From Trueperaceae bacterium (GTDB lineage: Bacteria; Deinococcota; Deinococci; Deinococcales; Trueperaceae), in NCBI GenBank assembly GCA_965215565.1, contig CBDCDZ010000004.1, positions 3,488,001 through 3,552,000 on the forward strand: a DNA stretch of 64,000 nucleotides. The letters run 5' to 3'. The notes below the pieces were generated by a model that was not told the DNA's origin, did not search any database, and was given only the letters and a program-made list of their open reading frames with translations. Below, piece after piece: positions 10,327 to 54,323 of the stretch (position 1 is its first letter; every line of letters starts with the position of its first letter). The position numbers were made by a program, and so were the translations under genes.

Positions 10327-10437
10327 TAGCAATTCCAAATCACACTGAGACGGATGAGCGCAGGTATCATCCCTTAAAATACGTGCTAGACATCGTTTTA
10401 CAAAGTGAGAGTATCTCTGACCAGATAATACCTGCTA
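10327..10437 (-). repeat. Family A 111-bp TA-bounded structured repeat
   Basis: TAGCAATTCC...CCTGCTA, 111 bp, aligns with copies at 15363, 44530, 44928 and 54213. Confidence 0.9.
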
Positions 10438-10441
10438 CTTT

Positions 10442-10855
10442 ATGAATAATGCAGTAAACCCTACCGCCTTGCGGCTCGCACCGGGCGCAGACCTTAAAGG
10501 TGCGCTGCTCGAGCTTACCAAGGCGCGTGCGCTAAGAGCGGGCATCGTCTTGACGTGCGTCGGTAGCTTGGCGGAGGCGTCGTTGCGCTTTGCAGGACAA
10601 GATGAGACGACGACGCTGCTGGGTCCTTTTGAAATCCTGTCGCTCGTCGGGACGCTCTCCCCCGAGGGCGTCCACCTGCACATCGCCTTAGCGGACAAGG
10701 AGGGTAGAACGGTAGGCGGACACGTGCAAGGAGGCTGCCTGGTCTACACAACCGCAGAACTCGTCGTTGGTGAACTGAGCGGGATGACGTTTTTGCGCAC
10801 CTTTGATACCGTGACGGGCTACGAAGAATTAGAGGTGCGGGGCGGAAAAGCGTGA
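10442..10855 (+). CDS. PPC domain (DUF296) protein
   Basis: LRL.PG.DL, TCVGSL, FEILSLVGT, HLH, GGH, TTAE. Confidence 0.9.
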   Translation: MNNAVNPTALRLAPGADLKGALLELTKARALRAGIVLTCVGSLAEASLRFAGQDETTTLLGPFEILSLVGTLSPEGVHLHIALADKEGRTVGGHVQGGCLVYTTAELVVGELSGMTFLRTFDTVTGYEELEVRGGKA

Positions 10856-11877
10856 AGGTCAACTTTGGGTAGGGAGAGCTTGATCTCCTCCCCTGGGGCG
10901 AGACCAGAGCGGCGCACCTCCGTTTCGGGCAGAAGAACCTCTATAGCACCGCACCCTCGAACTCGGCAGGTGAGCAGCGCGTCTTTGCCCTGCAAAGAGG
11001 TCTGCAAAAGCGTTGCGTTCAAAACGTTATCGCGCGCATCTTCTCCTCGAGCCACCACCCGCACCCGCTCGGGGCGGATGCCGAGAGAAGAGGTCTGAGC
11101 GGGCTGGGAAAGCGCTAAGACCGCCTCGCCCCACTTGACCCGCGTTCCGCCCAACGGTTCGACCTCTAAAAGGTTGCCCATTCCGACGAGTTTAGCGACG
11201 CTCTCGCTCACAGGATGGTGCATGACCTCTTGCGCACTGCCAAGTTGCACCACGCGCCCTGCCTCGTAGACCGCGAGCGTATCGGCGAGCATTGTCGCTT
11301 CGCTGAGGTCGTGGGTGACCAAAACGAGCGGCATGTCCAGATGGCTCAAGAGGTCTGACACGCGGCGGCGCAAGGTGGCGCGGACGAGGTCATCCAAGGC
11401 GGCGAAAGGTTCGTCTAAAAGTAAAAGGCGCGGCTCCGAAGCGAGGGCGCGCGCTAACGCCACGCGCTGCTGCTGTCCGCCGGAGAGTTCGTGCGGATAG
11501 CGCGAGGAGAGGTTGGAGAGTTCCATCTGGCTGAGCCAGTCTTGCGCGCGCCCCCGCCCCAACCTCTTGTTGCGAAAGCTGTACGCCACGTTATGCAGCG
11601 CCGTGAGGTGTGGGAAGAGGTGGTAGCCCTGCGCGACGTAGCCGATGCGCCGCCGCTGCGGTTTGAGGTCTATCTTCTGTGACGAATCGAAAAGGGATAC
11701 GCCGTTTATACGAATTACCCCGCGCTCCGGTGTGAGCAGCCCAGCGATCGCCTCCAACGTCAAACTCTTGCCCGAGCCTGACGCGCCGAAGAGCGCCAAG
11801 CGAGAACTTGTCGTGCGAAACGAGGGCCCTAACCTAAACCCCTCTAACGTGGCGCGGATATCTAGCTCTAAGCTCAT
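10819..11877 (-). CDS. modC: Molybdate ABC transporter ATP-binding protein
   Basis: Walker A GASGSGKS, LSGGQQQRV, LLLLDEP, TOBE tail; start taken at the ATG overlapping the modB stop. Confidence 0.85.
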   Translation of the reverse strand: MSLELDIRATLEGFRLGPSFRTTSSRLALFGASGSGKSLTLEAIAGLLTPERGVIRINGVSLFDSSQKIDLKPQRRRIGYVAQGYHLFPHLTALHNVAYSFRNKRLGRGRAQDWLSQMELSNLSSRYPHELSGGQQQRVALARALASEPRLLLLDEPFAALDDLVRATLRRRVSDLLSHLDMPLVLVTHDLSEATMLADTLAVYEAGRVVQLGSAQEVMHHPVSESVAKLVGMGNLLEVEPLGGTRVKWGEAVLALSQPAQTSSLGIRPERVRVVARGEDARDNVLNATLLQTSLQGKDALLTCRVRGCGAIEVLLPETEVRRSGLAPGEEIKLSLPKVDLHAFPPRTSNSS

Positions 11878-12644
11878 GACCGCATCACGTAGCTTCTGCG
11901 AATGAAGAGCCGAAAGAGAAAGAGGAGCAAAAACGCGCTCACCGTGAGGACGGCTGAGAGGGCTAGTGCTGCGTCTAAGTCGCTCTCCAACGCTGCATAA
12001 ATCGCCAGCGGCATCGTGCGCGTGCGCCCTGCGAACGAGCCCGCGAAGACCACCGTCGCGCCGAACTCGCCTAATGCCCGCGCCCACGCCAGCACGATTC
12101 CTTCGATCAAATACGGAACGACTAAAGGCAGCGTCACCCGCACGAACGTCTCGTAGCGGCTCATCCCGAGCGTCAGCGAGACGGCTTCCAACCTCTTGGG
12201 TACGGACGTAAAACCCGCTTTCATCGCGCGGATGAAAAGGGGTGAGGCGCTGAAAAGTTGCGCCAGAACCACCGCCGAGGCGGAGAAGGCGACGCTCAGC
12301 TCGAGTTCCGCCAACACGCCGCCCAATAGCCCACGCCGTCCGAACACAAGGAGTAACCCGACGCCCGCCACCACGGGCGGCAACACAAGCGGTAAATCCA
12401 AAAGCGTATCCAAAAGCCGGTGCCCCGGAAAGCGGTAACGCGCCAAAAGGTACGCGGTTGGCGTGCCCAAAAGGAGCGTGAGGAGGAGGCTGATACTCGT
12501 CGTGACGAGGCTGAGCCGTAAGGCCTGCAGCGCGGCGGGCTCTAAAAGTGCGCCCATCAGCGCGGGGTTAAGGGCGCGTAAAAGCAGCGCGAGCGTCGGT
12601 AGAACGAGGAGCGCCCCCATCACCACGCTCGCTACAGTAGGCAA
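11874..12644 (-). CDS. modB: Molybdate ABC transporter permease
   Basis: LPLVLPPVVAG, WARALGEFGAT, T.TMPLAIY. Confidence 0.9.
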   Translation of the reverse strand: MPTVASVVMGALLVLPTLALLLRALNPALMGALLEPAALQALRLSLVTTSISLLLTLLLGTPTAYLLARYRFPGHRLLDTLLDLPLVLPPVVAGVGLLLVFGRRGLLGGVLAELELSVAFSASAVVLAQLFSASPLFIRAMKAGFTSVPKRLEAVSLTLGMSRYETFVRVTLPLVVPYLIEGIVLAWARALGEFGATVVFAGSFAGRTRTMPLAIYAALESDLDAALALSAVLTVSAFLLLFLFRLFIRRSYVMRS

Positions 12645-12657
12645 AAGGGGCGGGAGG

Positions 12658-13404
12658 TTAGGGCTGCGCAGGGGAGAAGCCTCGCTCTGCTAAAATTCCT
12701 TGAGCGCTCGTCTGGACGAATTCGGCGAACGCCGAGGCTAACTCGGGTTGCTTACTATCCTCTAAAACCGCAATAGGATAACGCGCTGCAACGTTGTAGG
12801 CGGCTGGAATCTCGAGCACCTCAACCCCTCTCAGCGCCGCCGCGTCCGTCGCGTAGACGAGCGCCGCGTCCGCCTCGCCGAGTCCTACTTTCGCTGCGAC
12901 TTGCCGCACGTTCGTCTCCTCGGAGACGAGGTTCGCCAAAACGCGCTCCGAAAAGTCCGCGCCGTACCTTTCGTTCAAGTTTTCTAAAACGCTAAGCGCG
13001 TAGCGCCCCGCCGGTACGTTCGGTCCTGCCAGAACGAGCAACGCCCCTGGCTCGGCGAGGTCTTGGAGCGTTTCGACGGGCGAATCTTTTGGCGTAACTA
13101 CGACCAAACGGTTCTGCGCGAAGGTCTGCGGCGCACCGCTCAGCAGCCCCGCTTCTGCCACCACCTCCATCTGCGCTTCGTCCGCGCTGGCAAAGACGTC
13201 GGCGGGTGCGCCCTGCACAATCTGTGTGCTCAAGGTGGACGAGCCCGCGAAGTTGAGAATAACGTCCACGTCATGTTCTGCCGCAAACGCTGCCGCAACC
13301 TCTTCAAATGACTCGGTGAGGCTCGAGGCGGCAAACACCACCAACTCTTGCGCGTGAGTCAAATGAGTTGATAAGAGCAGGAGAATCAAGAGGATGAAAC
13401 GCAC
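12658..13404 (-). CDS. modA: Molybdate ABC transporter substrate-binding protein
   Basis: Signal peptide, VFAASSL, FAGSSTL..QI.QGAPADVFASAD, VPAGRYA. Confidence 0.92.
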   Translation of the reverse strand: MRFILLILLLLSTHLTHAQELVVFAASSLTESFEEVAAAFAAEHDVDVILNFAGSSTLSTQIVQGAPADVFASADEAQMEVVAEAGLLSGAPQTFAQNRLVVVTPKDSPVETLQDLAEPGALLVLAGPNVPAGRYALSVLENLNERYGADFSERVLANLVSEETNVRQVAAKVGLGEADAALVYATDAAALRGVEVLEIPAAYNVAARYPIAVLEDSKQPELASAFAEFVQTSAQGILAERGFSPAQP

Positions 13405-13443
13405 AACCGACTATATCAAGCTGTTCTAAAAGAAGCGGCTCAG

Positions 13444-13465
13444 GTTTGACACGAGTTTGACACGA
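13444..13465. promoter_or_regulatory. Tandem 11-bp direct repeat upstream of modA
   Basis: GTTTGACACGA x2, 40 bp from the modA start. Confidence 0.4.
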
Positions 13466-13470
13466 AGAGG

Positions 13471-13980
13471 TTAAGACTCCTCCACGTCGCTTTGAGGGAC
13501 GCGGTTTTGCTCGGGCCTACCTAGCAGTCCCATCAGGTTGTCCATACCCAAGAGGAGCCCCAAACCTAGCGTGAGCCTCACCGCTCCGCTGACGGGCCGT
13601 ACGAAGCTATTCGTGAAGCCTGCCGGTGCGAACAGACCGTCCGCGATGACCTGCAACACGTCGGCGGCTCCTTGCACTGCAAAAATAAGCCCGACCACCG
13701 AAAAGGCTAAACGCTGCACCTGCTGAAACGAGAGCGCGCCGATGTTTACGTCGCTAGGGTTGGGCGTGAGCCAGGTGGCAATGCGGGGCGCGTAACGCCA
13801 CAGCGTGAACGCAACGCCGAGGGTAACGAGAGTGTTCACGGCGTAAGAGGTGACGAAAAGAAGCGCCTCTTCCGTGCCGAAAAGCGAAGGAATCATCCAG
13901 GTGAGAGAGGTCAGCGTAATGAGAACGAAGTAGAGCGCTAGAACGCGGCAGGAGAGGGCGGAGAGGTCTCGCGTGTCCAT
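13471..13980 (-). CDS. Hypothetical membrane protein (4 TM)
   Basis: Hydrophobic ORF; start placed at ATG 13980, 6 nt after CATAAT. Confidence 0.7.
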   Translation of the reverse strand: MDTRDLSALSCRVLALYFVLITLTSLTWMIPSLFGTEEALLFVTSYAVNTLVTLGVAFTLWRYAPRIATWLTPNPSDVNIGALSFQQVQRLAFSVVGLIFAVQGAADVLQVIADGLFAPAGFTNSFVRPVSGAVRLTLGLGLLLGMDNLMGLLGRPEQNRVPQSDVEES

Positions 13981-13987
13981 ACCTCGA

Positions 13988-14254
13988 TTATGGTGCAGAG
14001 GGCGGTTTAGAAACAACTCGAGCCGCTAGAAAGTCTGCCTTGCGCCAAAGTAATGAAATCGCCACAAGGTAGATGACGATATTGGTGCCGAGGAGCGCAA
14101 GCGCGACGAGCACCGTGCTATCAAGTTCTGTCCCCGTCAATGATAGAGGAAGCAAAGATGCTGCAATCATGCTAGGCAGAGATAAGGCAAGTTGAACGAA
14201 AAAGTAGAGCGCTAGGAGCCGACAGGCGGTTTTGGCAAAGGTATAGATGTCCAC
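13988..14254 (-). CDS. Hypothetical membrane protein (2 TM), paralog of the N-terminal half of 13471-13980
   Basis: MDIYTFAKTACRLLALYF versus MDTRDLSALSCRVLALYF; both carry LWR.A..[IL]A. Confidence 0.6.
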   Translation of the reverse strand: MDIYTFAKTACRLLALYFFVQLALSLPSMIAASLLPLSLTGTELDSTVLVALALLGTNIVIYLVAISLLWRKADFLAARVVSKPPSAP

Positions 14255-14310
14255 CTTCCAATTTTAGGAAAGGTGGGTAGACAAAGTTGAGAATTATTCC
14301 CTGTGTGCTC

Positions 14311-15342
14311 TCACTCCCCAAACATCATCCGCACGGGCACAGGCTCGCGGTTCTTTTCGCTCACATCCGCCCACGTCCAGCCCGCGCACCGCAGCATGGT
14401 GTGGAGTCTGGCGCGGCGCTCTGCGTAGCGCGCCAACCGCTCGTTGGCCTCTTCGCCATAGGTATCTAAAGGGTTATCCACAGACTTATCCACAGGCTTA
14501 TCCACAAGCGAAAAATCAGGTAGAGGCGGCGTTTCGTGCGTGAATTCCACAAAGACCTCTTCTAAGCTCGAGACAAAACCCGCCACCGCCCGCCTCGAGA
14601 CTGTAAAGTGCTCGTCTCGTTGGACAGTGTCGGTGCATTCGAGCAGCGTTAAAACCTCGTCCAACATCGCCACCGCTAAAACGAGCGCGTAAGCGGGTTC
14701 TTTCGCACCTGAAAAGTGCAGCGCGGGGTAGCGGCGGTGGGTGTGCTCCAAGGTCACGAGCATCGGGGCGAGCGTGCTCAAGATGGGAACTGTCTTATCC
14801 TCTTTGCGCCAGATGCGGTCTAGTAACCTCTCCGGCGTATCCCCTAAGTGGTGAATGTAGAGCGCCAAGCGCCGCCGCTGCATCTCGCCCTGGACCATCG
14901 GCACGAAGAACGAGATGATGAGCGTGATCAAAAAGAAGCTGCTCAAAGAGGCGAAGGCGGTCAAGACCTGGTAGAACTGCGTGCCCGGTTGGTAGTCGCC
15001 GATGCCCAACGTTGAGAGGGTGTAGCCGCTGAAGTAGACGCGCGACCAGAAGGGCGCGGGGTTGCCGGAGGAGCCTTCTAGGACAGCTTGGGGTGAACTG
15101 GTGAAGATGATGAGCCAGCCCAGCCAAAGGACCAAAAACCAAGCGGCGACGGTGCATAGAATCGTGACCATGCCGAGTTGCGGAAGAGGTTGCTCTAAGC
15201 CTCCCTTACGCTGCACCAAGCGGCTCGCACACCAGGTCACAGCCATCGCGACGGGCCCGCCGCCCGTCATGGTGATGGTGGCAACCATCTCCACGGCGAT
15301 AGCGAGGACGACGCTTAAACCTACGAGAACGCCTAGTATCAT
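14311..15342 (-). CDS. Potassium channel family protein (Ion_trans_2)
   Basis: Pore helix/filter YFSGYTLSTLGIGD between TM helices. Confidence 0.85.
   Translation of the reverse strand: MILGVLVGLSVVLAIAVEMVATITMTGGGPVAMAVTWCASRLVQRKGGLEQPLPQLGMVTILCTVAAWFLVLWLGWLIIFTSSPQAVLEGSSGNPAPFWSRVYFSGYTLSTLGIGDYQPGTQFYQVLTAFASLSSFFLITLIISFFVPMVQGEMQRRRLALYIHHLGDTPERLLDRIWRKEDKTVPILSTLAPMLVTLEHTHRRYPALHFSGAKEPAYALVLAVAMLDEVLTLLECTDTVQRDEHFTVSRRAVAGFVSSLEEVFVEFTHETPPLPDFSLVDKPVDKSVDNPLDTYGEEANERLARYAERRARLHTMLRCAGWTWADVSEKNREPVPVRMMFGE
14474..14506 (+). promoter_or_regulatory. Three tandem consensus DnaA boxes inside the K+ channel CDS
   Basis: TTATCCACA at 14474, 14486 and 14498 (12-bp period). Confidence 0.5.
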
Positions 15343-15362
15343 CTCGGCATTATAGGGTGTAG

Positions 15363-15473
15363 TAGCAGTTCTAAGACATACTGAGACGGATGAGCGCAGA
15401 TATCATCTCCGAATGTGCGTGCTAGACACCGCTTTGCATAGTGAGAGTGTCTCAAACCAGATGATACCTGCTA
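15363..15473 (-). repeat. Family A 111-bp repeat
   Basis: TAGCAGTTCTAAGAC...GATGATACCTGCTA. Confidence 0.9.
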
Positions 15474-15490
15474 TAGCAAGGAAGGGCGCG

Positions 15491-16072
15491 CTAGACAAGC
15501 CCCTTAGCTAAAACGCTCACCGCCCGCGCCACTACCTCTTCACGCTGCGCCGAGTCGGTGAGCTTAGGCACCTGTTTTTCAATCGTCAGCTTAGCGAGTC
15601 CGTGCAGCGCCGCCCAAACGACGGCGCTGTCCACATACGAATCGCCGTCCAAGCGCTCAACACTCTGCAAGAGCGCCCCGTAAGCCCGTTTCGACGCAGC
15701 GTAGAGCCCTTCGTTTTTCATCCGCGCCTCAGCCGGGATGAGTGCGAACATGACGCGGGTCAGCTCGGGATTCTCGAGCGCAAAGCCGATATAAGCGTCG
15801 GCTAAAGAGCGAAGTTTAGACTCTAAGCCGCCTTCACCTCTTTCAATATTCCCGTGCAGCGCGTTCGCAAGTTCCTCAAACCCTTCTCGCGCGACAGCCT
15901 CGAGTAATACCTTTTTGCTCGCGAAGTGCCGATACACTGCCGGATGCGTCACGCCGACCTCTCGAGCTAACGCTCGCAGGTTGAGTGCCGCCGCACCCCC
16001 TTTTGCAATCTGCGCCCGCGCCGCACGCACAAGTGCATTTTTCAAATCTCCATGATGATAGTCGCCGCTCAA
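15491..16072 (-). CDS. TetR/AcrR family regulator (WHG-type C-terminus)
   Basis: YHHGDL, LR.LAREVGVT..AVYRHF, WAALHG. Confidence 0.92.
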   Translation of the reverse strand: MSGDYHHGDLKNALVRAARAQIAKGGAAALNLRALAREVGVTHPAVYRHFASKKVLLEAVAREGFEELANALHGNIERGEGGLESKLRSLADAYIGFALENPELTRVMFALIPAEARMKNEGLYAASKRAYGALLQSVERLDGDSYVDSAVVWAALHGLAKLTIEKQVPKLTDSAQREEVVARAVSVLAKGLV

Positions 16073-16101
16073 AATTCAGACCTCTTGTCTTCCAGGATAC
16101 A

Positions 16102-16151
16102 ATGTTACCGTCGGTTACATAAGATACTCAGCATTAGTTACCAAAGGTAAC
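16102..16151. promoter_or_regulatory. Two putative TetR operators
   Basis: ATGTTACC-GTC-GGTTACAT (16102-16120) and GTTACC-AAA-GGTAAC (16137-16151) between divergent tetR and SDR. Confidence 0.65.
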
Positions 16152-16198
16152 ATGTTCGAGAGGTCACGTGGAATCTCTTGAAAGTTCTCGAGAGGTAG

Positions 16199-17098
16199 GT
16201 GCGTATGCAGGGCAAGACGGTTGTGGTAACAGGTGCGACGAACGGTATCGGTGAGGCGATTGCGGAGGATTTGGCGGGCAAGGGTGCAAATCTCGTCATC
16301 GTCAGTCGGAACGAGGCGAAGTGCGCTGAAACAGCGAAGCGTATCAGCGAGAGGACGGGAAACCCGAACGTCACCTACTACATCGCTGACTTATCCGCGC
16401 AGGGAGAGGTACGCGACCTCGCGGATAAGCTGAACGACAACCTTGCGCGGCTCGATGTCCTCGTCAACAACGCGGGCGCATGGTTCACGGAACGCAAACT
16501 CAGCGCTGACGGTATCGAGATGACTTGGGCGCTCAATTACCTCAACTATTTTTTACTGACGCACGAGTTGACCGACCTCTTGAAGCGAACAGCGAAAGCG
16601 CACGGCGAAGCGCGAATCATCAACCAAGCCTCGAGTTCTCACTTGGAGGGCGAGATGCACTGGGATGACCTCGAGTTCGAAGCGGGTTGGGACACAAAAG
16701 GCAAAGGCAGCGTCGGGCCGGGTTGGGGCGTCTACAGCCAGAGCAAGCTGGCGAACGTCATGCACGCTTTTGCGCTAGCGCGTCGCTTAGAAGGTACGGG
16801 CGTTGTCGCTAACGCAGTTCACCCTGGCGTGGTGGTGACGGGTTTCGCTGCAAACAATGGTCTCTTCTATAAGCTGATGGCTCCCATGAGGCGGCTGTAC
16901 AACCGGAGCAGACCTCGAGACGGGGCAGAACCCGCAATTTATTTGGCTTCCGCACCCGAAGCCGCTACCATCACGGGCGCGTACTACGGACCGCCTCGTC
17001 AGCACGAAGAGGTCAATCCTATTGCGAACGATTCAAAGGCGCAAGAGCGGTTGTGGAACGTCTCTTTGGATTGTGTTGGCGCTGCTAAAGTCGCCTGA
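16199..17098 (+). CDS. SDR family oxidoreductase (retinol dehydrogenase-like)
   Basis: TGATNGIG, NNAG, YSQSK, VHPG. Confidence 0.92.
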   Translation: MRMQGKTVVVTGATNGIGEAIAEDLAGKGANLVIVSRNEAKCAETAKRISERTGNPNVTYYIADLSAQGEVRDLADKLNDNLARLDVLVNNAGAWFTERKLSADGIEMTWALNYLNYFLLTHELTDLLKRTAKAHGEARIINQASSSHLEGEMHWDDLEFEAGWDTKGKGSVGPGWGVYSQSKLANVMHAFALARRLEGTGVVANAVHPGVVVTGFAANNGLFYKLMAPMRRLYNRSRPRDGAEPAIYLASAPEAATITGAYYGPPRQHEEVNPIANDSKAQERLWNVSLDCVGAAKVA

Positions 17099-20920: not shown

Positions 20921-21038
20921 TAAAGCTCTGAACATGGCGTTGAGACCGAGCTTGTATCACGCAGATATCATCTCCAAACGTGCGTACTCGTCTATGTTTT
21001 TTCCGGTGAGGGCGTCTCTGACCGGATGATACCTGCTG
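20921..21038 (-). repeat. Family A repeat, degenerate copy abutting the fbp RBS
   Basis: GCAGATATCATCT...GTCTCTGACCGGATGATACCTGCT. Confidence 0.8.
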
Positions 21039-32348: not shown

Positions 32349-32596
32349 TAGCAGGTCTCAGCCGTTAGGCTAGCGGGGCTTCATCTGGTCTGAGTGCGCA
32401 AAGCGATGCGAAGCAACACTCCTACTACGAAGAACATTGTTTGCTTCGCGAAAACTCCGTCCCTACGGGCTTTCAGACTGCTCGCTCACGCGAAGCAGCT
32501 TTCAGAAATGTAGCGCGCACTTGATTGTGATGAGGTTCCGTTACAGCAAGCTGTGAAATCTGCGTTCGTTTGTCTCAGTATGTCGTAGAACTGCCG
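32349..32596 (+). repeat. Family A long form (248 bp)
   Basis: Starts TAGCAGGT, contains TCATCTGGTCTGAG and TAGCGCGCAC, ends GTCTCAGTATGTCGTAGAACTGC; has extended stem arms. Confidence 0.8.
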
Positions 32597-37240: not shown

Positions 37241-37352
37241 TAGTGGTTCTAAGTCGAGTGCTGCTGTGTACTCCCTCCGCTGTCTCAACGTAGTGAACAA
37301 GGGGTTGAAACCCCTTGCTTTGACACTAGCGTCATTCCAAATAGAACCACTA
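37241..37352 (+). mobile_element. Family B 112-bp MITE-like element
   Basis: TIR TAGTGGTTCTA / TAGAACCACTA; internal hairpin CAAGGGGTTGAAACCCCTTG. Confidence 0.8.
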
Positions 37353-42098: not shown

Positions 42099-42233
42099 TA
42101 GCAAGTATCATTTGGTTTGAGCCAGTCTCACGTTAGAGAACTTGGGCGAACACGCACATTCTTAAATGAGATCCCGCTAGTTCTTCGAACTGAGACTTGC
42201 GCTATTTCAATTCAGTACTTCTGTGAATTGCTT
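42099..42233 (+). repeat. Family A subfamily 2 copy with a 24-bp extension (135 bp)
   Basis: TAGCAAGTATCATTTGG...; closely similar to 44771-44881 plus 24 bp in the inner stem arm. Confidence 0.85.
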
Positions 42234-42679: not shown

Positions 42680-42791
42680 TAGTGGTTTCAAGTCGAATGC
42701 TGCCATGTGCTCCTTCTGCTATCTCTATGTAAGGAATAAGGGGTTGAAACCCCTTGCTTTGACATCAGCATCATTCTAGATAAAGCCACTA
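42680..42791 (+). mobile_element. Family B 112-bp MITE-like element
   Basis: TAGTGGTTT...AAAGCCACTA; collinear with 37241-37352; its end coincides with the stop codon of the methyltransferase. Confidence 0.8.
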
Positions 42792-44413: not shown

Positions 44414-44529
44414 TTGATGCAAGGCTACGCGCCGCTTGGTTCGCGTCAGCACCTTGAGAGGAGACCGCGTCAATGCGTTCCCACTATTGACTTCGTGAAC
44501 GCATCCGTTCAGGTTAAACATAAATGAAA

Positions 44530-44640
44530 TAGCAGTTCCATAACCTATTGAGACAGATAAGCGCAGATATCATCTCTGAAAGTGCGTGCCAAACAATAAC
44601 TTACTTAGTGAGCGTGTCTCTGACCAGATGATACCTGCTA
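44530..44640 (-). repeat. Family A 111-bp repeat
   Basis: TAGCAGTTCC...GATGATACCTGCTA. Confidence 0.9.
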
Positions 44641-44770
44641 AAAGTATGTTTAACCTAATAGGAAGTACGCCACGGATAACCTTTCTTCGCTGCTTTCTGC
44701 TTGCTCAACCCATGTGCTCGGGTGGCGCTTCTAATTCCGTCGGTTGACGCTGGCTGTCTCTAGCTGAATA

Positions 44771-44881
44771 TAGCAAGTATCATTTGGTTTGAGCCAGTCT
44801 CACGCTGGAGAACATCGACGAGCACGCACACTCTTAAATGATACTTGCGCTATTCCAATTCAGTACTTCTGTAAATTGCTT
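44771..44881 (+). repeat. Family A subfamily 2, 111 bp
   Basis: Stem GCAAGTATCATTT / AAATGATACTTGC with the same 50-nt spacing as subfamily 1. Confidence 0.85.
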
Positions 44882-44927
44882 TATTTCGTGCTTCTTTCCA
44901 AAAGGAAGTTTTGTTCGCCCCATATTT

Positions 44928-45038
44928 TAGCAGTTCCGAGACATACTGAGACGGATGAGCGCAGGTATCATCATCGAATGTGCGTGCTAGACGTCGTTTT
45001 ATCTAGTGGGCGTGTCTCAAACCAGATGATACCTGCTA
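44928..45038 (-). repeat. Family A 111-bp repeat
   Basis: TAGCAGTTCCGAGAC...GATGATACCTGCTA. Confidence 0.9.
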
Positions 45039-45073
45039 TTTGTTATAATCGTTCAGGGGTGTGCCATGCTTGA

Positions 45074-46171
45074 TTGGAACTGTTCGTGCTGACGCCGCTA
45101 CCGTTAGCTTACGGAGCTTCGCCGCCGCGCCACGCGCTGCAGCGCGGTTTGGCGCTCGTCAGTCTCGTTATGAGCGGCCTATGGTTCGTATTCTACGAGC
45201 TTCTGGGGCTCGCGTTTCCGCTTAACCGCAGCCTTTACGCGCTGCTCATCATTGCGAGCGCCGCCGCGTTTTTTGCGCCGCCCCGCCTGCGCGAAAGAGC
45301 GGTAGAGCTAGGCGCGTTCGTCTACTTAGCAGTGCTGCTCGTAGCTTGGCTCGAGGCGTTCTACTACTCTTACGGCTCGCTCAGCGCGCAGTTCTCGGTT
45401 CTTAAAGTCACCCTTTGGCTGCCTGCTGTTTGCGGCGCATTTTTTTTGGTGTACAGCCCGAGAACCGCGCTCAACGTCTCTTCGTTGGCGCTTAGCGCGT
45501 TCATCATGACGAGTGTGCCGCACGCGCTCGCGACATCGGGCGACAGAGGGGTTTTCAGCGGGTTTTTGCTGCCGCTAGCGCTCCTCGTCGGTCACGGGGC
45601 GTGTGTGGCGGCGCTCCACGCTTTGACGCGCCCCGCCCTGCCCACCTCCGGCGTCAGCGACAACGTCGAGCAGCTCCAGAAGCTCGCCTACTACGACACG
45701 CTTACGGGCGTCCCCAACCGGCGGCAGATGAACTTGCTCCTTCAGGATGCGTTCATAGGCGCGCGCAAAGGGGATGCGTTAGCTGTCATGATGATCGACT
45801 TCGACTACTTCAAGCAGATCAACGACGCTTTCGGTCACAACGTCGGTGACATGGTCCTCTCCACTGCCGTTCAGAGGCTCGCCGAGCAGCTTCGCAGCAA
45901 CGACACCCTTGGGCGTTGGGGCGGCGAGGAATTTATCGTATTAGCGCGGCACGCGGGTGAGCAAGGCGCGCTGCGCCGCGCCGAACGGCTGCGCGAGGCG
46001 GTAGAAGCGAGACCTCTTTTCGGCGACTACAAGGTCACGGTGAGCTGTGGCGTCGCACTCTACAAGCCAGGGGACACGCCCGAGCTGCTCATTAAACGCG
46101 CCGACAAAGCGCTCTACCGCGCTAAGCGCAACGGACGCAACCGCGTCGAAGCGGTTGCGGGACCCGAGTAA
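45074..46171 (+). CDS. Membrane-bound diguanylate cyclase
   Basis: 6 TM helices; D.LTG.PNRR, FKQIND.FGH..GD, RxxD I-site, GGEEF; exact start uncertain. Confidence 0.92.
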   Translation: MELFVLTPLPLAYGASPPRHALQRGLALVSLVMSGLWFVFYELLGLAFPLNRSLYALLIIASAAAFFAPPRLRERAVELGAFVYLAVLLVAWLEAFYYSYGSLSAQFSVLKVTLWLPAVCGAFFLVYSPRTALNVSSLALSAFIMTSVPHALATSGDRGVFSGFLLPLALLVGHGACVAALHALTRPALPTSGVSDNVEQLQKLAYYDTLTGVPNRRQMNLLLQDAFIGARKGDALAVMMIDFDYFKQINDAFGHNVGDMVLSTAVQRLAEQLRSNDTLGRWGGEEFIVLARHAGEQGALRRAERLREAVEARPLFGDYKVTVSCGVALYKPGDTPELLIKRADKALYRAKRNGRNRVEAVAGPE

Positions 46172-46248
46172 AGCGCCGCAGCTCGAGCAGGGCTCCCACT
46201 GTTCAGCCTCGCTACCCGTTAGGGAAACAAGGTTGTAGCAGGTGTCAG

Positions 46249-46365
46249 TAGACCTCTTGCAAAAGTTCCCCTTTCTCTGCCCGTTGCGTCTGCTCATACT
46301 CGTTCTACTCGGCAAAAGCGCGAGCCGGGCATTCTCACCTGTCTCCCACTTTCGCAAAAGGTCTA
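46249..46365. mobile_element. 117-bp MITE-like element (family G) nested in a family A remnant
   Basis: TIR TAGACCTCTTGCAAAAGT / ACTTTCGCAAAAGGTCTA (16 of 18 match). Confidence 0.8.
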
Positions 46366-46411
46366 GTGTGTCGTGGAAGTGCTGATGAGCTAGAAAAGAA
46401 CGTGTAGGCAC

Positions 46412-46468: not shown

Positions 46469-46474
46469 AAACCT

Positions 46475-46643: not shown

Positions 46644-46892
46644 TCATACCAATTCCGATTGTTTCGCTAACATAGCGAATCAATCCGAGCGGAAAAGAGT
46701 CTTCAACCGGTGGTAACATCAACGAATAGCCAATATGAGCAGCAATCAACGGCATGATACGCCCGGTTGAGGACTCTCCTGCGAGTGGGAGCAAAGATTT
46801 ACATAGTTTTCGCCTTCGCGAAACGGATGGAGTGTATGAACTATCATCGAACGCATTTCTCGGTGATAGGGAATTGAACGGAATTCGTATCA
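46644..46892. mobile_element. ~249-bp MITE-like element (family F)
   Basis: Imperfect TIR TCATACCAATTCCG / CGGAATTCGTATCA. Confidence 0.55.
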
Positions 46893-48058: not shown

Positions 48059-48697
48059 ATGGCTGAGACGATACAGGTACTGCTCGCAGACGATCATCCG
48101 CTGGTGCGGTCTGGCATTCGCGCGACGCTCGCGAACGAGTCGAGGATCGAGTTGGTGGGCGAAGCGACTGACGGCGACGAAGCCCAGCAGATGGGTTTAG
48201 CGCTGCGCCCCGACGTCATGCTGCTCGACTTGGGTATGCCGGGACCCTCCCCGCTAGAAACCATCGCCTACATACGCGAGCACTGTCCCGGAACCAGAGT
48301 CCTGATCCTCACCGCTTACGACGATGACACCTACATCCGCGGGCTCACGGGCGCAGGTATCGACGGGTATCTGCTCAAAGACGAAGCTACCGAAGCCTTG
48401 ATGAACGCAATCGTTACGCTGCACGGGGGCGGCACCTGGTTCAGCCACGCCATCGCCCAGAAGATGTTCGAATGGCGCTCGGGCGAAAGGAGCGCCGCGT
48501 TTGACCTCACGCGCCGCGAGGAGGAGATGCTTTCAGGCATCGCGCAGGGCTGGGACAACAAGCGCATCGCCGACGAGTACACGCTCGCCGAACAAACAGT
48601 GCGTAACTACATCAGCCGCATCTACGACAAGCTCAACTTGCATTCGAGGGCTGAAGTTGTGGTGTGGGCGCGGCAGCAGGGGTTCGCGAAGGACTAA
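48059..48697 (+). CDS. NarL/LuxR family response regulator
   Basis: DDHPLVR.G, LLDL.MP, GYLLK, LT.RE. Confidence 0.93.
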   Translation: MAETIQVLLADDHPLVRSGIRATLANESRIELVGEATDGDEAQQMGLALRPDVMLLDLGMPGPSPLETIAYIREHCPGTRVLILTAYDDDTYIRGLTGAGIDGYLLKDEATEALMNAIVTLHGGGTWFSHAIAQKMFEWRSGERSAAFDLTRREEEMLSGIAQGWDNKRIADEYTLAEQTVRNYISRIYDKLNLHSRAEVVVWARQQGFAKD

Positions 48698-48709
48698 TAC
48701 CCTTTCCTA

Positions 48710-48841
48710 TAGCAGGTATCATCTGGTCAGCTACACTCTTACTGAAAAGAACATCGCCTAGCACGCACTTTCAAAGATGATATCTGCGGAGAAGTGTTGC
48801 TTCGCATAACTTCGTTCAAGCAATGACAAGTGGAACTACTA
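48710..48841 (+). repeat. Family A chimeric copy
   Basis: The first 79 bp match family A; the distal part differs but ends TGGAACTACTA. Confidence 0.75.
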
Positions 48842-48845
48842 CTAG

Positions 48846-48909
48846 AAGGTGTCCCGTTCCGTGTGTATCCAAAATGCAAGGTGTCCCGTTCCGTGTGTAT
48901 CCAAAATGC
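48846..48909. repeat. Perfect 32-bp tandem duplication
   Basis: AAGGTGTCCCGTTCCGTGTGTATCCAAAATGC x2. Confidence 0.9.
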
Positions 48910-48942
48910 AACTCGCGTCTCGCACGGGTTTTGCGCAACTCC

Positions 48943-49053
48943 TAGCAGGTATCATCTGGTCTAAGACACTCTCACTGTAGAAAACACTGTTCAGTACGCA
49001 CATTCAGAGATGATACCTGCGACACTCTGTCTCAGTATGTTTTGGAAGTGCTA
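48943..49053 (+). repeat. Family A 111-bp repeat
   Basis: TAGCAGGTATCATCT...TTGGAAGTGCTA. Confidence 0.9.
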
Positions 49054-49090
49054 TCCATACACAAAACGTGGTATACCGCCTTTCCTATCG

Positions 49091-50329
49091 CTACGTCGAG
49101 ACCAGTTCGGCGCTCGGGCGCACTTGCGCAGGCTGTTCCAGCGGAAGCGCCACGCGGAAGACCGCGCCGCCCGCATCTTGGTTTGAGGCGGAGACCTGTC
49201 CGCCGTGCAACTCGACTAAGGCGCGCACGATAGCGAGTCCTAAACCGCTGCCGCCCGTCGCGCGCCCTCGGCTCAGATCAGCGCGGTAGAAGCGGTTAAA
49301 AATCCGCGCCAAGGCGTCCTCGGAGAGCCCCGGTCCTGAGTCGGCGACGGTGAGTACGGTGCTCGCCGCACCGTTTCTCCCACCTGTTCGAGCCTCGAGC
49401 CTCAGCACCACCTCGCCCCCCGGCGGCGTGTGACGCAGCGCGTTGCTGAGCAAATTGCCCAATACTTGCGAGAGCCTGTCGGGGTCCGCGTAGACGTGCA
49501 GCGCGCCGGGTAGCTCGAGCCGAATCGTCACCTCTTTCGCCCTGGCGCTCCCGGCGAAGGCAGCGCTACACGCCCTGACGATTTCCGTGAGATTAGTGGG
49601 ACGGCGCTCCAACGAGAGCCTGCCCGCGTCGGCGAGCGAGAGCGTGCGCAGGTCTTGGACGAGCCTCGAAAGAAGTTGCGTCTGTTTGGTCAGCGTTTGC
49701 AGCGAGTCGCCGTCTAGGGGCAAGACGCCGTCCTCCATCGCGTCAATATGCCCTTGCAAGATGGTCAGCGGGGTGCGGAGTTCGTGTGCGATATCGGCGA
49801 TCATCGCCTGGCGCTCACGCTCCAAACGCTCTAGCGACTCCGCCATCGCGTTGAAGTTGTGCGTCAGCTCGCCGATCTCGCCGTGCTTTGTACGCGCAGG
49901 GGGGACGACGCGCGCGCTCAAGTCGCCGTGGGCCACGCGGCGCGCGGCGTGCGACACGTTCGTAATAGGTTTGGAGATGTGCCGCGCGATGAGGAGCGCC
50001 ACAAGCACGCCGAAAGGGACGGCGATGAGCGCCGCGATGAGCAGTGAGCGCAGCCGCCCATTGAGGATGTTGAGGAGTGCGGTGAGAAAGCGTTCGAAAT
50101 TCTCGTCCGAACTGATCAGGTCTCGGAAGAGCGCTTTGATGAGGGGTAGTTGCTCTTCTCTCGAGAGTTCTGGGTCATCTACAACCTCATCGATACCGTT
50201 GCGAAAGTTGGCGGGTAAGTTTTCGTACTGCCGCGACATGCTGTACATCTCGGTGACCACGAGGAGCGCGATCGTGCTCGCGATTGCGCTGACGATAAAG
50301 ACGGTGAGGCGGACGGCGAGGCGGTTCAT
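49091..50329 (-). CDS. HAMP-domain sensor histidine kinase (BaeS-like)
   Basis: AHELRTPL, NLLSNA, D.GPG, RFYR, GSGLGL. Confidence 0.93.
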   Translation of the reverse strand: MNRLAVRLTVFIVSAIASTIALLVVTEMYSMSRQYENLPANFRNGIDEVVDDPELSREEQLPLIKALFRDLISSDENFERFLTALLNILNGRLRSLLIAALIAVPFGVLVALLIARHISKPITNVSHAARRVAHGDLSARVVPPARTKHGEIGELTHNFNAMAESLERLERERQAMIADIAHELRTPLTILQGHIDAMEDGVLPLDGDSLQTLTKQTQLLSRLVQDLRTLSLADAGRLSLERRPTNLTEIVRACSAAFAGSARAKEVTIRLELPGALHVYADPDRLSQVLGNLLSNALRHTPPGGEVVLRLEARTGGRNGAASTVLTVADSGPGLSEDALARIFNRFYRADLSRGRATGGSGLGLAIVRALVELHGGQVSASNQDAGGAVFRVALPLEQPAQVRPSAELVST

Positions 50330-50333
50330 AGGG

Positions 50334-51098
50334 TCAGCCGGGTAGCTCCGCCAAGCGGTAGCCCACCCCGCGCACGGTCTGCAACAGTCCCTCCGCGCCC
50401 TGCTCGCCGAGCTTGCGCCGCAAGTTGCGTAGGTGAACGTCCACGACGCGCTCGAGCGCGTCGCTTTCGGGCAGCGCCGCCTCTAAGAGTTCGGCGCGGC
50501 TAAAGGTGCGCCCCTCAGCGCACGCCATGTGGTAGAGCAGCCGGAATTCGGTGGCGGTTAAGGGGAGCACCGCGCCGCGAACAGACGCGGTGGTGCGCCT
50601 CGGGTCTACTTCTAAAGTGCCTACGCGCGCGGGCATCTCACCTTGTGCGTTCTGGGCTTGAGTGTGGGTGCGGCGCAGCACCGCCTTGACGCGCGCCATG
50701 ACCTCGCGCGGGCGAAAGGGCTTGGTGACGTAGTCGTCCGCGCCTAGCTCGAGCCCTAAAAGTTTATCGAGTTCTTCCGTCCGCGCGGAGAGCATGATCA
50801 CGGGCGTCGTGCTCTCCGCGCGAATGACTTTAAGCACCTCGACGCCGTCTAACTCGGGCAGCATAATGTCCAAAAGGACCAAGTCCGGGCGAGTTGCCCG
50901 GAAGAGCGTCAGCGCCGCCCTGCCGTCTTTCGCCCGCTCGGTGCGGTAGCCCGAGCGTTGCAAATACCCCTCCAACACCTTGGCGATGTCCAGTTCGTCC
51001 TCAACCACCAACACGAGCGCCATGCCCTCCACTGTAGCGCTTTGACGCATCCCTGTCATCTTTTGCTGTACCGGTTTCTGTTGTGTCGGCTTCTGCAT
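50334..51098 (-). CDS. OmpR family response regulator
   Basis: LLDIMLP, GADDYVTKPF, TVRGVGYRL; start may be downstream (ATG 51023). Confidence 0.93.
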   Translation of the reverse strand: MQKPTQQKPVQQKMTGMRQSATVEGMALVLVVEDELDIAKVLEGYLQRSGYRTERAKDGRAALTLFRATRPDLVLLDIMLPELDGVEVLKVIRAESTTPVIMLSARTEELDKLLGLELGADDYVTKPFRPREVMARVKAVLRRTHTQAQNAQGEMPARVGTLEVDPRRTTASVRGAVLPLTATEFRLLYHMACAEGRTFSRAELLEAALPESDALERVVDVHLRNLRRKLGEQGAEGLLQTVRGVGYRLAELPG

Positions 51099-51212
51099 TG
51101 GTACTAGCTTAGTGGACGCTTATTAAGGTCTGGCGAAGAGGGTGGAGAGGCGGAAGGGAGAATAAAGAATAGAAGCGCCTCTTCTTCCTTCTGTATTCTG
51201 CCTCCTGCATCT

Positions 51213-52151
51213 TCAAGGCAGCGACTCGAAGAACGTCATGATCGCCTCGCCTGTTCCGCCTGGCCAATTGTGCGGGTAGTAGCGCCCGCTATAGCCGTAG
51301 TCTTGAGTGTGCGGACACCACACGACGGGGTGCCGCTCGTCCGCGCCGCCGTAGCGCTCGCAGTTTAGGGAGCGCGGTTGAGCTGGAACAGGCGGGCTCG
51401 AGATGCCGTTCTGCCGCAAGAAGTGGTTCGCCACCTCTGCGCCGTAGTCCACGTCCACCAGGCGGTCGTTAGGATTATGCAGAACCATTGCGGCGGTAGG
51501 CGCGACACACTCTTCCGCGACGATAGAGCCGCCGAGCGTGCCGACGCCGCGCACCTGGCTCCCCCTCGCGCAGCCCAAAGCGTTCGCGAAGTACGCCCCC
51601 AGCGAGTGCCCCACCGCGAAGACCTTATCTAAGTTGAGGCAGTAGTACTGCGCGTGTAGCCCCAACATCACGTCGAAAAAGGCGTAGTCGCGCAGCGCGT
51701 CTGCAGGGTCGCCGGGGTCGGACCAGGTGAAGGTGCCGTCGCCTTGGCTGAGCCCGTTCGGATAGACGAAAATCGTATTCGCGGCGTGCGGCTCCAGGTC
51801 GTAGTAGCGCCTGACCTCTTCGTTCGGGCTGGTACGCCCGTGAAAGGCGAAGACGAGCGTCTGGGGAACGTCGGGGTCATAGTTTGCCGGAATGACGGTG
51901 ATAAAGGAGCGGATGCGCCCGTCCACCTCTACCCTCGAGGGCGCAACCGCCGGGGCGTCTCGTGAGCAGCCAGCGGAGCGGCTCGAGTTGCTGACCTGAA
52001 CTCGCCGCGTTTGATTCGGGACCTGAGTCTCCCGAGATACTTGCGCAGAAACGGCGGGCGGTCCGGCGCACGCCACGCTCAAGAGCGTCACGCAGAGCAT
52101 AAAGACAACAAATAGAAAGGCGGAGGGTAGACAGCGCTTGAATTGTCGCAT
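51213..52151 (-). CDS. Secreted/lipoprotein alpha/beta hydrolase (PHB depolymerase/feruloyl esterase-like)
   Basis: Lipobox-like VAC, FHG, VYP.G, GHSLG nucleophile. Confidence 0.8.
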   Translation of the reverse strand: MRQFKRCLPSAFLFVVFMLCVTLLSVACAGPPAVSAQVSRETQVPNQTRRVQVSNSSRSAGCSRDAPAVAPSRVEVDGRIRSFITVIPANYDPDVPQTLVFAFHGRTSPNEEVRRYYDLEPHAANTIFVYPNGLSQGDGTFTWSDPGDPADALRDYAFFDVMLGLHAQYYCLNLDKVFAVGHSLGAYFANALGCARGSQVRGVGTLGGSIVAEECVAPTAAMVLHNPNDRLVDVDYGAEVANHFLRQNGISSPPVPAQPRSLNCERYGGADERHPVVWCPHTQDYGYSGRYYPHNWPGGTGEAIMTFFESLP

Positions 52152-52239
52152 CTTTCAGAGCTTACCCCGTCAAGGTTAGAGGTTGAGGAAGCGGCAGTGA
52201 AGAATCCATGAAAGAGGTAGAGAAGGCGTAAACTAGTCC

Positions 52240-53931
52240 ATGGCTCGCTTTAACTTGAAATCCGGTTTAGATAGTGACGTACTCAAGAACCTCCAGCCCA
52301 GCCCGCAGACGCTGCAAAACCTCCTAGCGAACGCGCGCGTGACGCTACAAAACGCGCTCGCTATGCTTCCCGGCGAACGTCCTGAATACTTGGTGGTGGA
52401 ACTCTCCGGCTCCTATCCTGCACGGAAGCAGAAGCGCAAGCTCTTTCCCCCGCAACTTGGCGCTCAAGAGACCTCGTTAGAGGCGTTCAGTGAGCAGATC
52501 GAGGCGTTGGCGCGCGCCGACTGGCTCAAGGGCGTCGTCTTCCGCCTGAATGACCTCAGTGTGGACCTCACCACGGCGCGGAGCTTGCGCGAAGAGGTCG
52601 TGAAACTCAAAAAGGCTGGTAAGCATACGACGCTCTACGCGCCGCAACTCGACTTACCCAGTTACTACCTCGCTACGGCTGCCGACGAGGTCATCATGCC
52701 GGACGGGGGCGAGCTGTTCGTGCTCGGGCTGGCCGTGCAAATCACCTTTATGCGTGACGCGCTGGCGCGTTTCGGTGTGTCGTTCGACAAGCTCGCCATT
52801 GACGAATACAAAAACGCGGGCGACAACTTCGCGCGCCAAGAGATGAGCGACGCGCAGCGCGAGCAGTACGGGGCGCTCTTGGACAGCCTCGAGGCCACCT
52901 TCTTAAACGACGTCGCCGAGGCTAGAAAGGTGACGCCCGGACAGGTCCAAGGCTGGATCGACGAAGGCGTGAGTTCACCGCAGCACGCCCTGGAACTGGG
53001 CATGATCGACCGCGTCGCCTATGAAGACGAGGTGCTACATAGGGCGCACAAGCCGCTTCGCGCCGGAGCGCGGTTTCTCACTCAAAAGCCGCGCCCCCTA
53101 AACACGAAGCGCGTCGCTGTGATTTCGCTGTCGGGCATCATCGTCCCCGGCAAGTCGCGGCGCACGCCCTTTCCACTGCCCTTAATCGGCTCCTTGCAAG
53201 CGGGCTCCGAGACCTTGTTGCGCGCCTTTCGCGCCGCCGCCGCTGACGAGAGCACCGCCGCTATCGTCTTCCTGGTTGACTCGGGTGGCGGTTCCGCGCT
53301 TGCGAGCGACCTCATCTGGCGCGAGGTGACGCGCGTACGCCGCGACAAACCCGTCGTGGCGGTGATGGGCGGCGTGGCGGCGAGCGGCGGTTACTACGTC
53401 CTCACACACGCGGACCACGTCGTCGCTGCGCCCACCACGCTCACGGGCTCCATCGGCGTGTTGACGAGCAAGTTCGTATTTGAAGACTTCAACGCGCGTT
53501 ACGGCTTCCACCCGCAAGCGCTGAGCCGAGGGCGCTACATCCTCGCGTTTAACTCGGCGCGTTCTTTTGACGACGAGGAGCGCGCGCTCGTACAGCGTTT
53601 CATCGGTGAGGTCTACGAGCGCTTCACGGACCGCGTCGCCGAGGGGCGCAACCTCTCTAAAGCGCGCGTGAACGAGATCGGACGCGGGCATATCTGGTCA
53701 GGGAAGGACGCTTTAGAGATCGGTCTAGTGGATGAACTCGGCGGCGTGACGCTCGGAATCCGGCGAGCGAAAGAGATTGCCGGGTTGCACGCGGACGCTC
53801 CGACGTGGAACGTGGATGCGCCCTCTAAGATGCTCTTACCGACACAGGAAGACCCGAGCACGCTGCTAAGGGCGCTAGCGCCGCTGCGCCGCGAGAAGGC
53901 GCTCTTGCTCGAGCCTGCGCACCTAATGTGA
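52240..53931 (+). CDS. sppA: Signal peptide peptidase SppA (67K type)
   Basis: Two S49 domains; YK.A, DS.GGS, AASGGYY, TGSIGV. Confidence 0.92.
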   Translation: MARFNLKSGLDSDVLKNLQPSPQTLQNLLANARVTLQNALAMLPGERPEYLVVELSGSYPARKQKRKLFPPQLGAQETSLEAFSEQIEALARADWLKGVVFRLNDLSVDLTTARSLREEVVKLKKAGKHTTLYAPQLDLPSYYLATAADEVIMPDGGELFVLGLAVQITFMRDALARFGVSFDKLAIDEYKNAGDNFARQEMSDAQREQYGALLDSLEATFLNDVAEARKVTPGQVQGWIDEGVSSPQHALELGMIDRVAYEDEVLHRAHKPLRAGARFLTQKPRPLNTKRVAVISLSGIIVPGKSRRTPFPLPLIGSLQAGSETLLRAFRAAAADESTAAIVFLVDSGGGSALASDLIWREVTRVRRDKPVVAVMGGVAASGGYYVLTHADHVVAAPTTLTGSIGVLTSKFVFEDFNARYGFHPQALSRGRYILAFNSARSFDDEERALVQRFIGEVYERFTDRVAEGRNLSKARVNEIGRGHIWSGKDALEIGLVDELGGVTLGIRRAKEIAGLHADAPTWNVDAPSKMLLPTQEDPSTLLRALAPLRREKALLLEPAHLM

Positions 53932-53984
53932 GGCGTCGGCTGCATAGTTATGAACTAGAGAAGCGCGAAGTGTGAAGTGAGAGG

Positions 53985-54086
53985 TGGCGGCTCTACCCGA
54001 AATGACATTGATGTCCGAGCAAGGGGTTTCAACCCCTTGTTCACCGTACCAAGATAGCAGAAGGAGCAAGCAGCTTAGAACTGCTA
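53985..54086 (-). mobile_element. Family B element, degenerate (102 bp)
   Basis: Reverse copy with CAAGGGGTTTCAACCCCTTG; ends TTAGAACTGCTA. Confidence 0.7.
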
Positions 54087-54130
54087 CTAAGTAAGAATAC
54101 GGAATTTTTCTCCTTGCTTCTTGTTCTCGA

Positions 54131-54172
54131 ATAGGGATAAGGCTCGAGTCTGGACTCGAGCCTTATCCCTAT
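54131..54172. repeat. Perfect 20-bp-arm palindrome (REP-like)
   Basis: ATAGGGATAAGGCTCGAGTC-TG-GACTCGAGCCTTATCCCTAT. Confidence 0.85.
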
Positions 54173-54212
54173 CAAGAGGTCGCGCTAAGCTTGTAGCGTT
54201 CCGTCGTACCTA

Positions 54213-54323
54213 TAGCACTTCCAAAACATACTGAGACAGAGTGTCGCAGGTATCACCTCACAACGTGCGTGCTAAACAGTGTTTTCTACAGTGAGGGTGT
54301 CTCAGACCAGATGATACCTGCTA
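54213..54323 (-). repeat. Family A 111-bp repeat
   Basis: TAGCACTTCC...GATGATACCTGCTA; closest to the 48943 copy. Confidence 0.9.

Follow-up and report, generated by a model that had tools for sequence, protein, structure and literature searches.

The RUP element of Streptococcus pneumoniae is a 107-bp repeat proposed to be moved by the insertion sequence (IS) IS630-Spn1 (PMC2229807, PMC3049150). In the review account of the Correia elements of Neisseria, the 155-bp form carries a site for a host protein, integration host factor (IHF), which was suggested to aid transposition (PMC2229807). [quoted passage not shown] Here we describe a repeat of about 111 bp from a 64,000-nt stretch of the chromosome of a Trueperaceae bacterium (GenBank assembly GCA_965215565.1, contig CBDCDZ010000004.1, positions 3,488,001 to 3,552,000). 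This stretch is termed the window, and coordinates are positions in it; G000:C4 denotes the host chromosome contig, and G001, G002, G005, G054, G064 and G066 are related genomes. A reading of the sequence alone had left two options, an undescribed structured non-coding RNA (ncRNA) family or a mobile element with a single-stranded intermediate. Our analysis, built on hidden Markov models, position weight matrices and tree counts, upholds the mobile element and speaks against the ncRNA. The repeat is very probably a gene-less, non-autonomous MITE; DDE transposases of the IS630 family, which this host no longer has, are likely to have moved it in trans.

Insertion of the repeat family with short target duplications

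A profile made from six window copies gave 555 matches, all chromosomal and none on the three small contigs; 214 ran end to end. Pairing of left and right ends delimited 333 elements, and the 332 retained amount to 1.1% of the chromosome. This provides the genome-wide set of end-to-end copies that the sequence-only reading had proposed collecting. The eleven copies that it had listed were all recovered where it had placed them, and the seven of exactly 111 bp comprise six intact copies and that at 44771. Across the host, 122 of the 141 copies without a large insert measure exactly 111 bp. The repeat is short, non-coding, present in high copy number and mostly intergenic, as MITEs are. Its exact 18-base left-end motif was found in 16 of 121 family genomes and 7 of 36 genera, counts that an exact pattern biases towards invariance. 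A scan of the collection returned 61 loci, 55 of them from Trueperaceae or Truepera; the other six stop short of the element body.

Element positions 3–15 pair with 66–78 to give a 13-bp stem around 50 nt, as had been read from the window. The loop, however, is not fixed in length, as had also been claimed: a 49-nt lineage (seven of eight 110-bp copies) and a 51-nt lineage (six 112-bp copies) have both spread, and outside the host we observed 101-bp copies and a loop of 58 nt. Terminal inverted repeats are present but imperfect, positions 2–5 and a box at 21–25 pairing in most of the 113 uninterrupted host copies. The window copies that depart from 111 bp are not mere length variants, since they hold cassettes of 20–25 nt or, in one case, have a decayed right end (Table 1).

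Two classes of target duplication account for all but 10 of the 332 copies. In the larger class, 156 of 212 copies are flanked by a 3-bp duplication (6.3 in shuffled controls) and none has TA on both sides. Among all copies, 148 have tips that read TAG...CTA, and in 95 of these a 3-bp duplication lies beyond the tips (shuffle 4.4). In the second class, 85 of 110 copies have TA on both sides, although a shuffle is uninformative for a fixed dinucleotide. The duplications of window copies read CTA, TTT, AAA, TCC, TAG and CTA, and TA on both sides occurs only in subfamily B copies. Empty paralogous sites were available for ten copies lying inside other repeats, with an overlap of 3 bp in seven and 2 bp in three; the offsets were different in 3 of the 50 rows. 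In one case a copy has landed within an IS630 pseudogene and duplicated CTA. Eleven orthologous loci could be compared in the congeners G001 and G002: ten are without the copy and one has copies at other positions. Empty sites in relatives had been named as a useful check, and they exist; at the locus of the 54213 copy, for example, G001 is 114 bp shorter. Because the 3-bp duplications lie outside the tips and the empty sites agree, the terminal TA belongs to the element. The original remark that TA-bounded ends are typical of IS630/Tc1-mariner MITEs pointed to the IS630 type borne out here, but most window copies do not have TA as their target duplication; only those of subfamily B do.

Probable partner IS630 elements and the right end

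Elements of the IS630 family, about 1 kb long and with TAGCA at start and end, are present in G001, G002 and G066. They consist of a helix-turn-helix (HTH) frame and a DDE_3 frame (PF13358 above cut-off, PF01710) with invariant D, D and E. A 3-bp duplication flanks 8 of 10 TAGCA-ended copies and, in one G066 type, 6 of 7 correctly delimited copies, 9 of the 20 IS630 regions in G066 being either of another end type or not delimited by the script. Three other IS630 copies have a 4-bp duplication, and a further G066 type (L327, L328) duplicates TA. The 212-copy class of the MITE thus shares the 3-bp duplication of its partner IS630, and the 110-copy class follows TA.

The right tip of the AAGTGC subfamily is identical to that of the IS630 element L118 at 29 of 36 positions, and that of the TA subfamily to L327/L328 at 27 of 36, against at most 19 for other tips. 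The GCTAC subfamily matches L120 at 29 of 36, a value from two copies only. Each subfamily's right end is closest to the IS630 end of the same duplication type. In BLASTN of L118 against the host the likeness ends at base 36–37, the position of the Cys codon of the CGY motif. In four IS ends the distance from this codon (TGC or TGT) to the tip is 36 bp, whereas the G066 type has it at 26 bp; in G066, 14 of 37 pooled MITE copies are 101 bp long, 11 of these with a 3-bp duplication, and they show 19/26 identity to the tip of the 26-bp type. What is observed, then, is an inserted MITE with 3-bp or TA duplications, imperfect terminal repeats and an IS630-like right end, the best matches (27–29 of 36) being to elements of G001, G002 and G066 that encode a DDE_3 and HTH_Tnp_IS630 transposase. 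The sequence-only reading had advised a search for an IS630 transposase with matching ends, and had regarded a match to the ends of a known IS, with the inner arm as a transposase-binding subterminal repeat, as grounds for giving up its structured family. Such a transposase is present in related genomes and lacking in the host, and the match, at the right end, is largely of the kind described.

It seems that a 75-bp core took its right ends from three or more IS630 variants, joined at one and the same point, the Cys codon (TGC/TGT) of the CGY motif, with which the end of the inner arm overlaps. Length would then be set by the right end, with 75 + 36 giving 111 bp and 75 + 26 giving the 101 bp of G066, so that the length class of a copy would depend on which right end its core carries. 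Helical phasing had been considered for the difference between 111 and 101 bp and was dropped, as the position of the Cys codon explains the 10 bp; a literature search on phasing also came up empty. Other partners were also considered. The ends of ISL2/IS5-type elements (PF13359, PF01609) do not match, and the repeated IS elements resident in the host end differently. A search for ISAzo13 (PF07592) gave no match in five genomes, but neither did its control, so it allows no conclusion. Since the host has no matching transposase now and no two of its copies are identical, the family is likely to be dormant there.

The two dyads and the internal stem

Each arm of the stem is itself a 5-3-5 dyad, one centred on position 10 and the other on position 71. 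In the local dyad position 6 is the mirror image of position 14, and the two can pair in 111 of the 113 copies. In subfamily B (44771, 42099) the pairs 6/75 and 14/67 change together; given the mirror symmetry, this reads as one half-site change made in four half-sites. The change of two base pairs on both arms that had been noted in the 44771 copy was confirmed, but not as independent covariation, since it is a single event on one branch of 22 copies. Moreover, pair 14/67 ranks 36th in corrected mutual information, and the stem pairs do not stand out above the subfamily signal. A second IS630-type MITE family of ~205–245 bp, with TAC...GTA tips, a TNA duplication and tips resembling the host IS630 at L003, is present in the window at 1024–1229 (minus strand) and 46647–46889 (plus strand). 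It has a covarying long stem around two GT-ADC-AT dyads. The core stands twice in this sister MITE, each time with a flanking stem of its own, and neither of these stems can pair with the other; the recurring unit is thus the local dyad and not the long stem.

We tentatively favour the dyads as candidate sites for a dimeric DNA-binding protein that aids synapsis, over both a relic and a single-strand fold. In this, the least sure step of the scheme, the left-end dyad and its inner copy would be two sites for one protein, which would help to pair two ends only ~100 bp apart in a very short element, and the 13-bp stem in the RNA would come about incidentally. For this proposed role the model is the IHF site of the 155-bp Correia element.

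Several observations weigh against such an IS630-driven MITE with protein-binding dyads. The partner transposase was not found in the host (best tblastn E 0.26), and mobilisation rests on the related genomes. The MITE left end agrees with IS630 tips at only 12–20 of 36 positions, and an IS with that left end was not found. A 114-bp class, predicted by L321 with its Cys codon 39 bp from the tip, was not seen. No dyad-binding protein was identified, and the dyad flanks of the sister MITE vary as pairs, as they might in a local hairpin no less than in a protein site. When shared, changes in the inner arm are biased towards G-U on one strand, by 21 host events to 0, which a plain binding site does not predict. 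Across the sampled genomes, shared variants are G-U on that strand in 23 cases and on the other in 6, with 14 other mismatches, each counted once per genome and not independent.

It is also possible, if somewhat unlikely, that the inner arm of the same IS630 MITE is a functionless relic. In that case IS630 right ends would have been added to an older element whose 15-bp inverted repeats were perfect, and gene conversion or template switching would keep the arms alike. The short GCA/TGC microhomology at the junction fits such an origin, as do the decay of the inner arm in G054 and G064 copies and the frequent tandem duplication of the left end. However, among 84 matches ending at model positions 70–86, no free 80-bp element with a duplication was evident by eye, and the left 18-mer is unchanged across the genomes and genera counted above, with the same bias towards invariance.

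The G-U pairs, reported from the window as arising on one strand only, were counted on a tree of the 113 uninterrupted host copies. Among shared stem changes, 11 lead to and 10 lead from G-U on the TAGCAGG strand, none involves the other strand and three give a mismatch at the stem edge. Private changes are unbiased, with 20 G-U on the TAGCAGG strand, 17 on the other and seven other mismatches. The one-strand variants at 66, 73 and 74 were borne out, but the bias does not extend to private changes and is leaky in sister genomes, with shared mismatches in the stem in G066, G005 and G002. Next to co-directional genes the MITE lies in one orientation 64 times and in the other 74 times (138 copies; of the 332, 83 are too far from a gene and 111 stand in divergent or convergent gaps). 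Overall, lineages that spread do show the bias, though weakly, and after insertion it is gone. Its presence in shared but not in private changes, together with the unbiased orientation, excludes selection by the host for an RNA at the individual loci and leaves room for a role in amplification.

Such a role would fit an IS630 MITE whose amplification needs a single-stranded DNA or RNA fold of the TAGCAGG strand, in which the left end pairs with the inner arm, for instance in donor-site gap repair; we consider this unlikely. The 11 changes to G-U and 10 back, all on one strand, are in its favour. Furthermore, G-U variants recur at 66, 73, 74, 75 and 78 in two to six genomes, G-U intermediates of both double changes exist, and across genera the inner arm has stayed broadly complementary next to a diverging loop. 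Yet the shared wobble changes occur only at positions 66, 73, 74 and 78, four of seven possible positions against none of six (one-sided p 0.049, or 0.078 when pooled). The bias draws on 4–5 positions in all, and event counts may be too high where copies have recombined. Copies pooled as G066 share breaks in the stem (G-G at 74 in 12/30, A-G at 76 in 7/30, C-A at 67 in 6/30). Orientation on the replichores is unbiased (160 versus 172, the skew being weak), copies of 136 bp and of 201 bp have near-identical counterparts at separate loci, as have others with cassettes, and the folding z-scores of seven copies range from −0.01 to −3.05.

A bolder reading, which we regard as improbable, makes the 75-bp core a portable amplification module driven by any resident IS630 through right-end swaps at the Cys codon, with the GT-ADC-AT dyad, present twice here and twice in the sister MITE, acting as a single-strand hairpin or host-factor site. 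On this reading the same dyad, where an RNA-guided IS110 recombinase and 21–25-nt mobile cassettes both enter, would be a handle on how tiny elements move.

It is very improbable that the repeat is an undescribed structured ncRNA family kept by the host for its fold. The 13-bp stem does appear in the minimum-energy fold of the TAGCAGG strand in all seven copies folded. Against this stand the target duplications, the empty sites, the insertions into pseudogenes, positions that are not conserved in congeners, the unbiased gene orientation and private mutations, and covariation dominated by subfamily structure. No conserved extra helix was found in the 50-nt loop. The Rfam search that had been recommended gave no match in the window at gathering score; with E up to 10 there was nothing at 1000–1300 and a single chance match (E 2.7) at 44450–45100. 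The GAGAC/GTCTC pairing, originally read as a pseudoknot, is the inner box of the terminal repeat. GAGAC stands at 21–25 from both tips and in the same place in IS ends, its counterpart being GCTAC at both ends in one subfamily, and the helix is compatible in 73% (one strand) or 80% (the other strand) of the 113 copies, without strand bias. A REPIN-like element moved by a HUH enzyme (RAYT/TnpA), with the dyads as hairpins like those of repetitive extragenic palindromes (REPs), would explain two inverted imperfect palindromes at near-constant spacing but is scarcely credible in view of the DDE-type duplications and IS630-matching ends; the HUH transposase that had been suggested as a candidate has no stand-alone RAYT/TnpA representative in the host, whose sole PF01797 match lies inside a 1322-codon frame that by its motifs, judged by eye, is restriction-modification-like.

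Passengers, window copies and comparison with known systems

The MITE is the host context of an IS110 element and of tiny cassettes. All seven intact copies of the IS110 element lie at the same TC in the left dyad (Table 1). Its 5' non-coding end has guide-like stretches that match the target on both sides of the TC, and a predicted junction promoter; the stretches are assigned to loops according to the bridge-RNA model. There are about six fixed sites at which cassettes of 21–25 nt enter, the centres of the two dyads among them. Hairpin cassettes are found genome-wide, are site-specific and often nested, and those in the dyads replace the A of GT-A. One cassette family enters the GAGAC box at either end. 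Besides ISPpu9, discussed below, IS621 is another REP-targeting IS110 element.

Table 1. Copies and parts of the MITE in the window, and host chromosome positions of the IS110 element
Feature	Position	Strand	Remarks
111-bp MITE copy, 3-bp-duplication class	10327..10437	-	flanks AAG/AAC, one mismatch
111-bp MITE copy	15363..15473	-	CTA duplicated
Older copy	20921..21038	-	left end and inner arm intact, right end decayed
248-bp copy	32349..32596	+	several nested 20-25-nt hairpin cassettes, one per dyad arm
135-bp subfamily B copy, TA duplication	42099..42233	+	24-nt cassette in inner arm; orthologous locus in G001 without copy
111-bp copy	44530..44640	-	TTT duplicated; G001 and G002 without copy
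111-bp subfamily B copy, TA duplication	44771..44881	+	dyad half-sites altered at 6, 14, 67, 75; G001 and G002 without copy
111-bp copy	44928..45038	-	AAA duplicated; G001 and G002 without copy
Probable twelfth copy, 149 bp	46236..46384	+	duplication gone; insert with ends like host ISL2-type element
132-bp GCTAC-box copy	48710..48841	+	CTA duplicated; 21-nt cassette in right terminal box
111-bp reference copy	48943..49053	+	TCC duplicated; G001 without copy
Left-end 5-3-5 dyad, element positions 4-16	48946..48958	+	elsewhere in the genome, landing site of IS110 element and cassettes
Inner terminal-repeat box	48963..48967	+	21-25 from left tip; partner 21-25 from right tip; earlier read as pseudoknot
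Inner inverted copy of left end	49008..49020	+	element positions 66-78
36-bp right end	49018..49053	+	resembles IS630 right end, from Cys codon of transposase C-terminal CGY motif to tip
111-bp copy	54213..54323	-	G001 is an empty site, 114 bp shorter
IS110 element, intact copies	G000:C4 639854, 682767, 1228151, 1292132, 2531339, 3106001, 4135797		
IS110 element, remnants	G000:C4 160057, 695868		

Other repeats were encountered in the course of this work. The left 19–32 bp of the MITE often occur in tandem, up to six times (G000:C4 179916-179943, 1994340-1994435; L067, L114, L231, L255). These arrays were considered as operators of one regulon, an idea rejected because their neighbours have no evident common function; the two arrays that were read lead into decayed copies. 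A tandem repeat of ~33 bp fills window ~48845-48920, between copies 48710 and 48943, and an IS1-type short repeat starting GGTAGTGGCTC has copies at window ~37300-37350, 42740-42790 and 53990-54040. A further MITE family, the third, combines IS630-type tips (TAGCAATTCC/TAGCATTTCC) with another hairpin core and is represented at G000:C4 4280236, 1151739 and 184426 and at L126. Inserts of 40–60 bp bounded by AGGT...ACCT lie inside transposase pseudogenes (L002 244-302 and 892-931; G000:C4 ~640450). Finally, the 1322-codon frame mentioned above combines a Y1_Tnp (HUH) domain with DNA methyltransferase motifs (L005, G000:C4 3784734-3788051).

With these results a candidate ncRNA becomes a MITE with named partner transposases, which should not enter RNA-family pipelines. 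For mobile-DNA specialists it will be useful that one IS630 clade duplicates 3–4 bp outside the terminal TA rather than TA. In addition, a single MITE core seems to be matched with several transposases, with both length class and duplication type going by the right end of the partner, which offers a natural set for testing end recognition. A partial literature collection, which did not include ISfinder, yielded no paper on this MITE family or on 3-bp duplications by IS630 elements.

Among described systems RUP is close: as portrayed in the sources, it too is an intergenic, high-copy MITE of ~110 bp with IS630-like ends that inserts into transposase genes and has a predicted folded transcript (PMC2229807, PMC3049150). 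RUP is described as targeting TA, whereas here one class duplicates a degenerate 3 bp outside the terminal TA and another duplicates TA (PMC2229807). Also unlike RUP, the right ends here match several IS630 variants, and the left end with its dyad was not seen in the IS ends examined. The Correia/NEMIS elements of Neisseria (107 and 155 bp) resemble this family in being TA-bounded MITEs with length classes, but the review credits them with terminal repeats of 24 bp that are nearly perfect, with an IHF site that has been tested and with a proposed effect of RNase III (PMC2229807). The ~110-bp CIR of Caulobacter likewise has internal arms and a conserved DNA motif in the predicted loop; the review's entry gives CIR no terminal repeat and no known mobiliser, whereas the repeat here has terminal repeats and a probable mobiliser (PMC2229807). 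The partner elements have the two-frame HTH and DDE_3 transposase and ~1-kb length of IS630 family members such as ISTth6; unlike the 2-bp repeat given for ISTth6, the TAGCA-ended group here duplicates 3, sometimes 4, bp (PMC6352166).

As in the published description of REP-targeting IS110 elements such as ISPpu9 (PMC12288879), an abundant repeat is the IS110 landing site, here for every intact copy. In taking up 21–25-nt cassettes the repeat resembles the SDR elements of Nostoc (PMC4390886). Unlike those cases, the host repeat here is an IS630 MITE and not a REP, and the IS110 element and the cassettes alike go into the centre of one dyad. The MITE family itself appears to be new; its kind, a MITE probably mobilised by IS630 elements and working like RUP, is already known.

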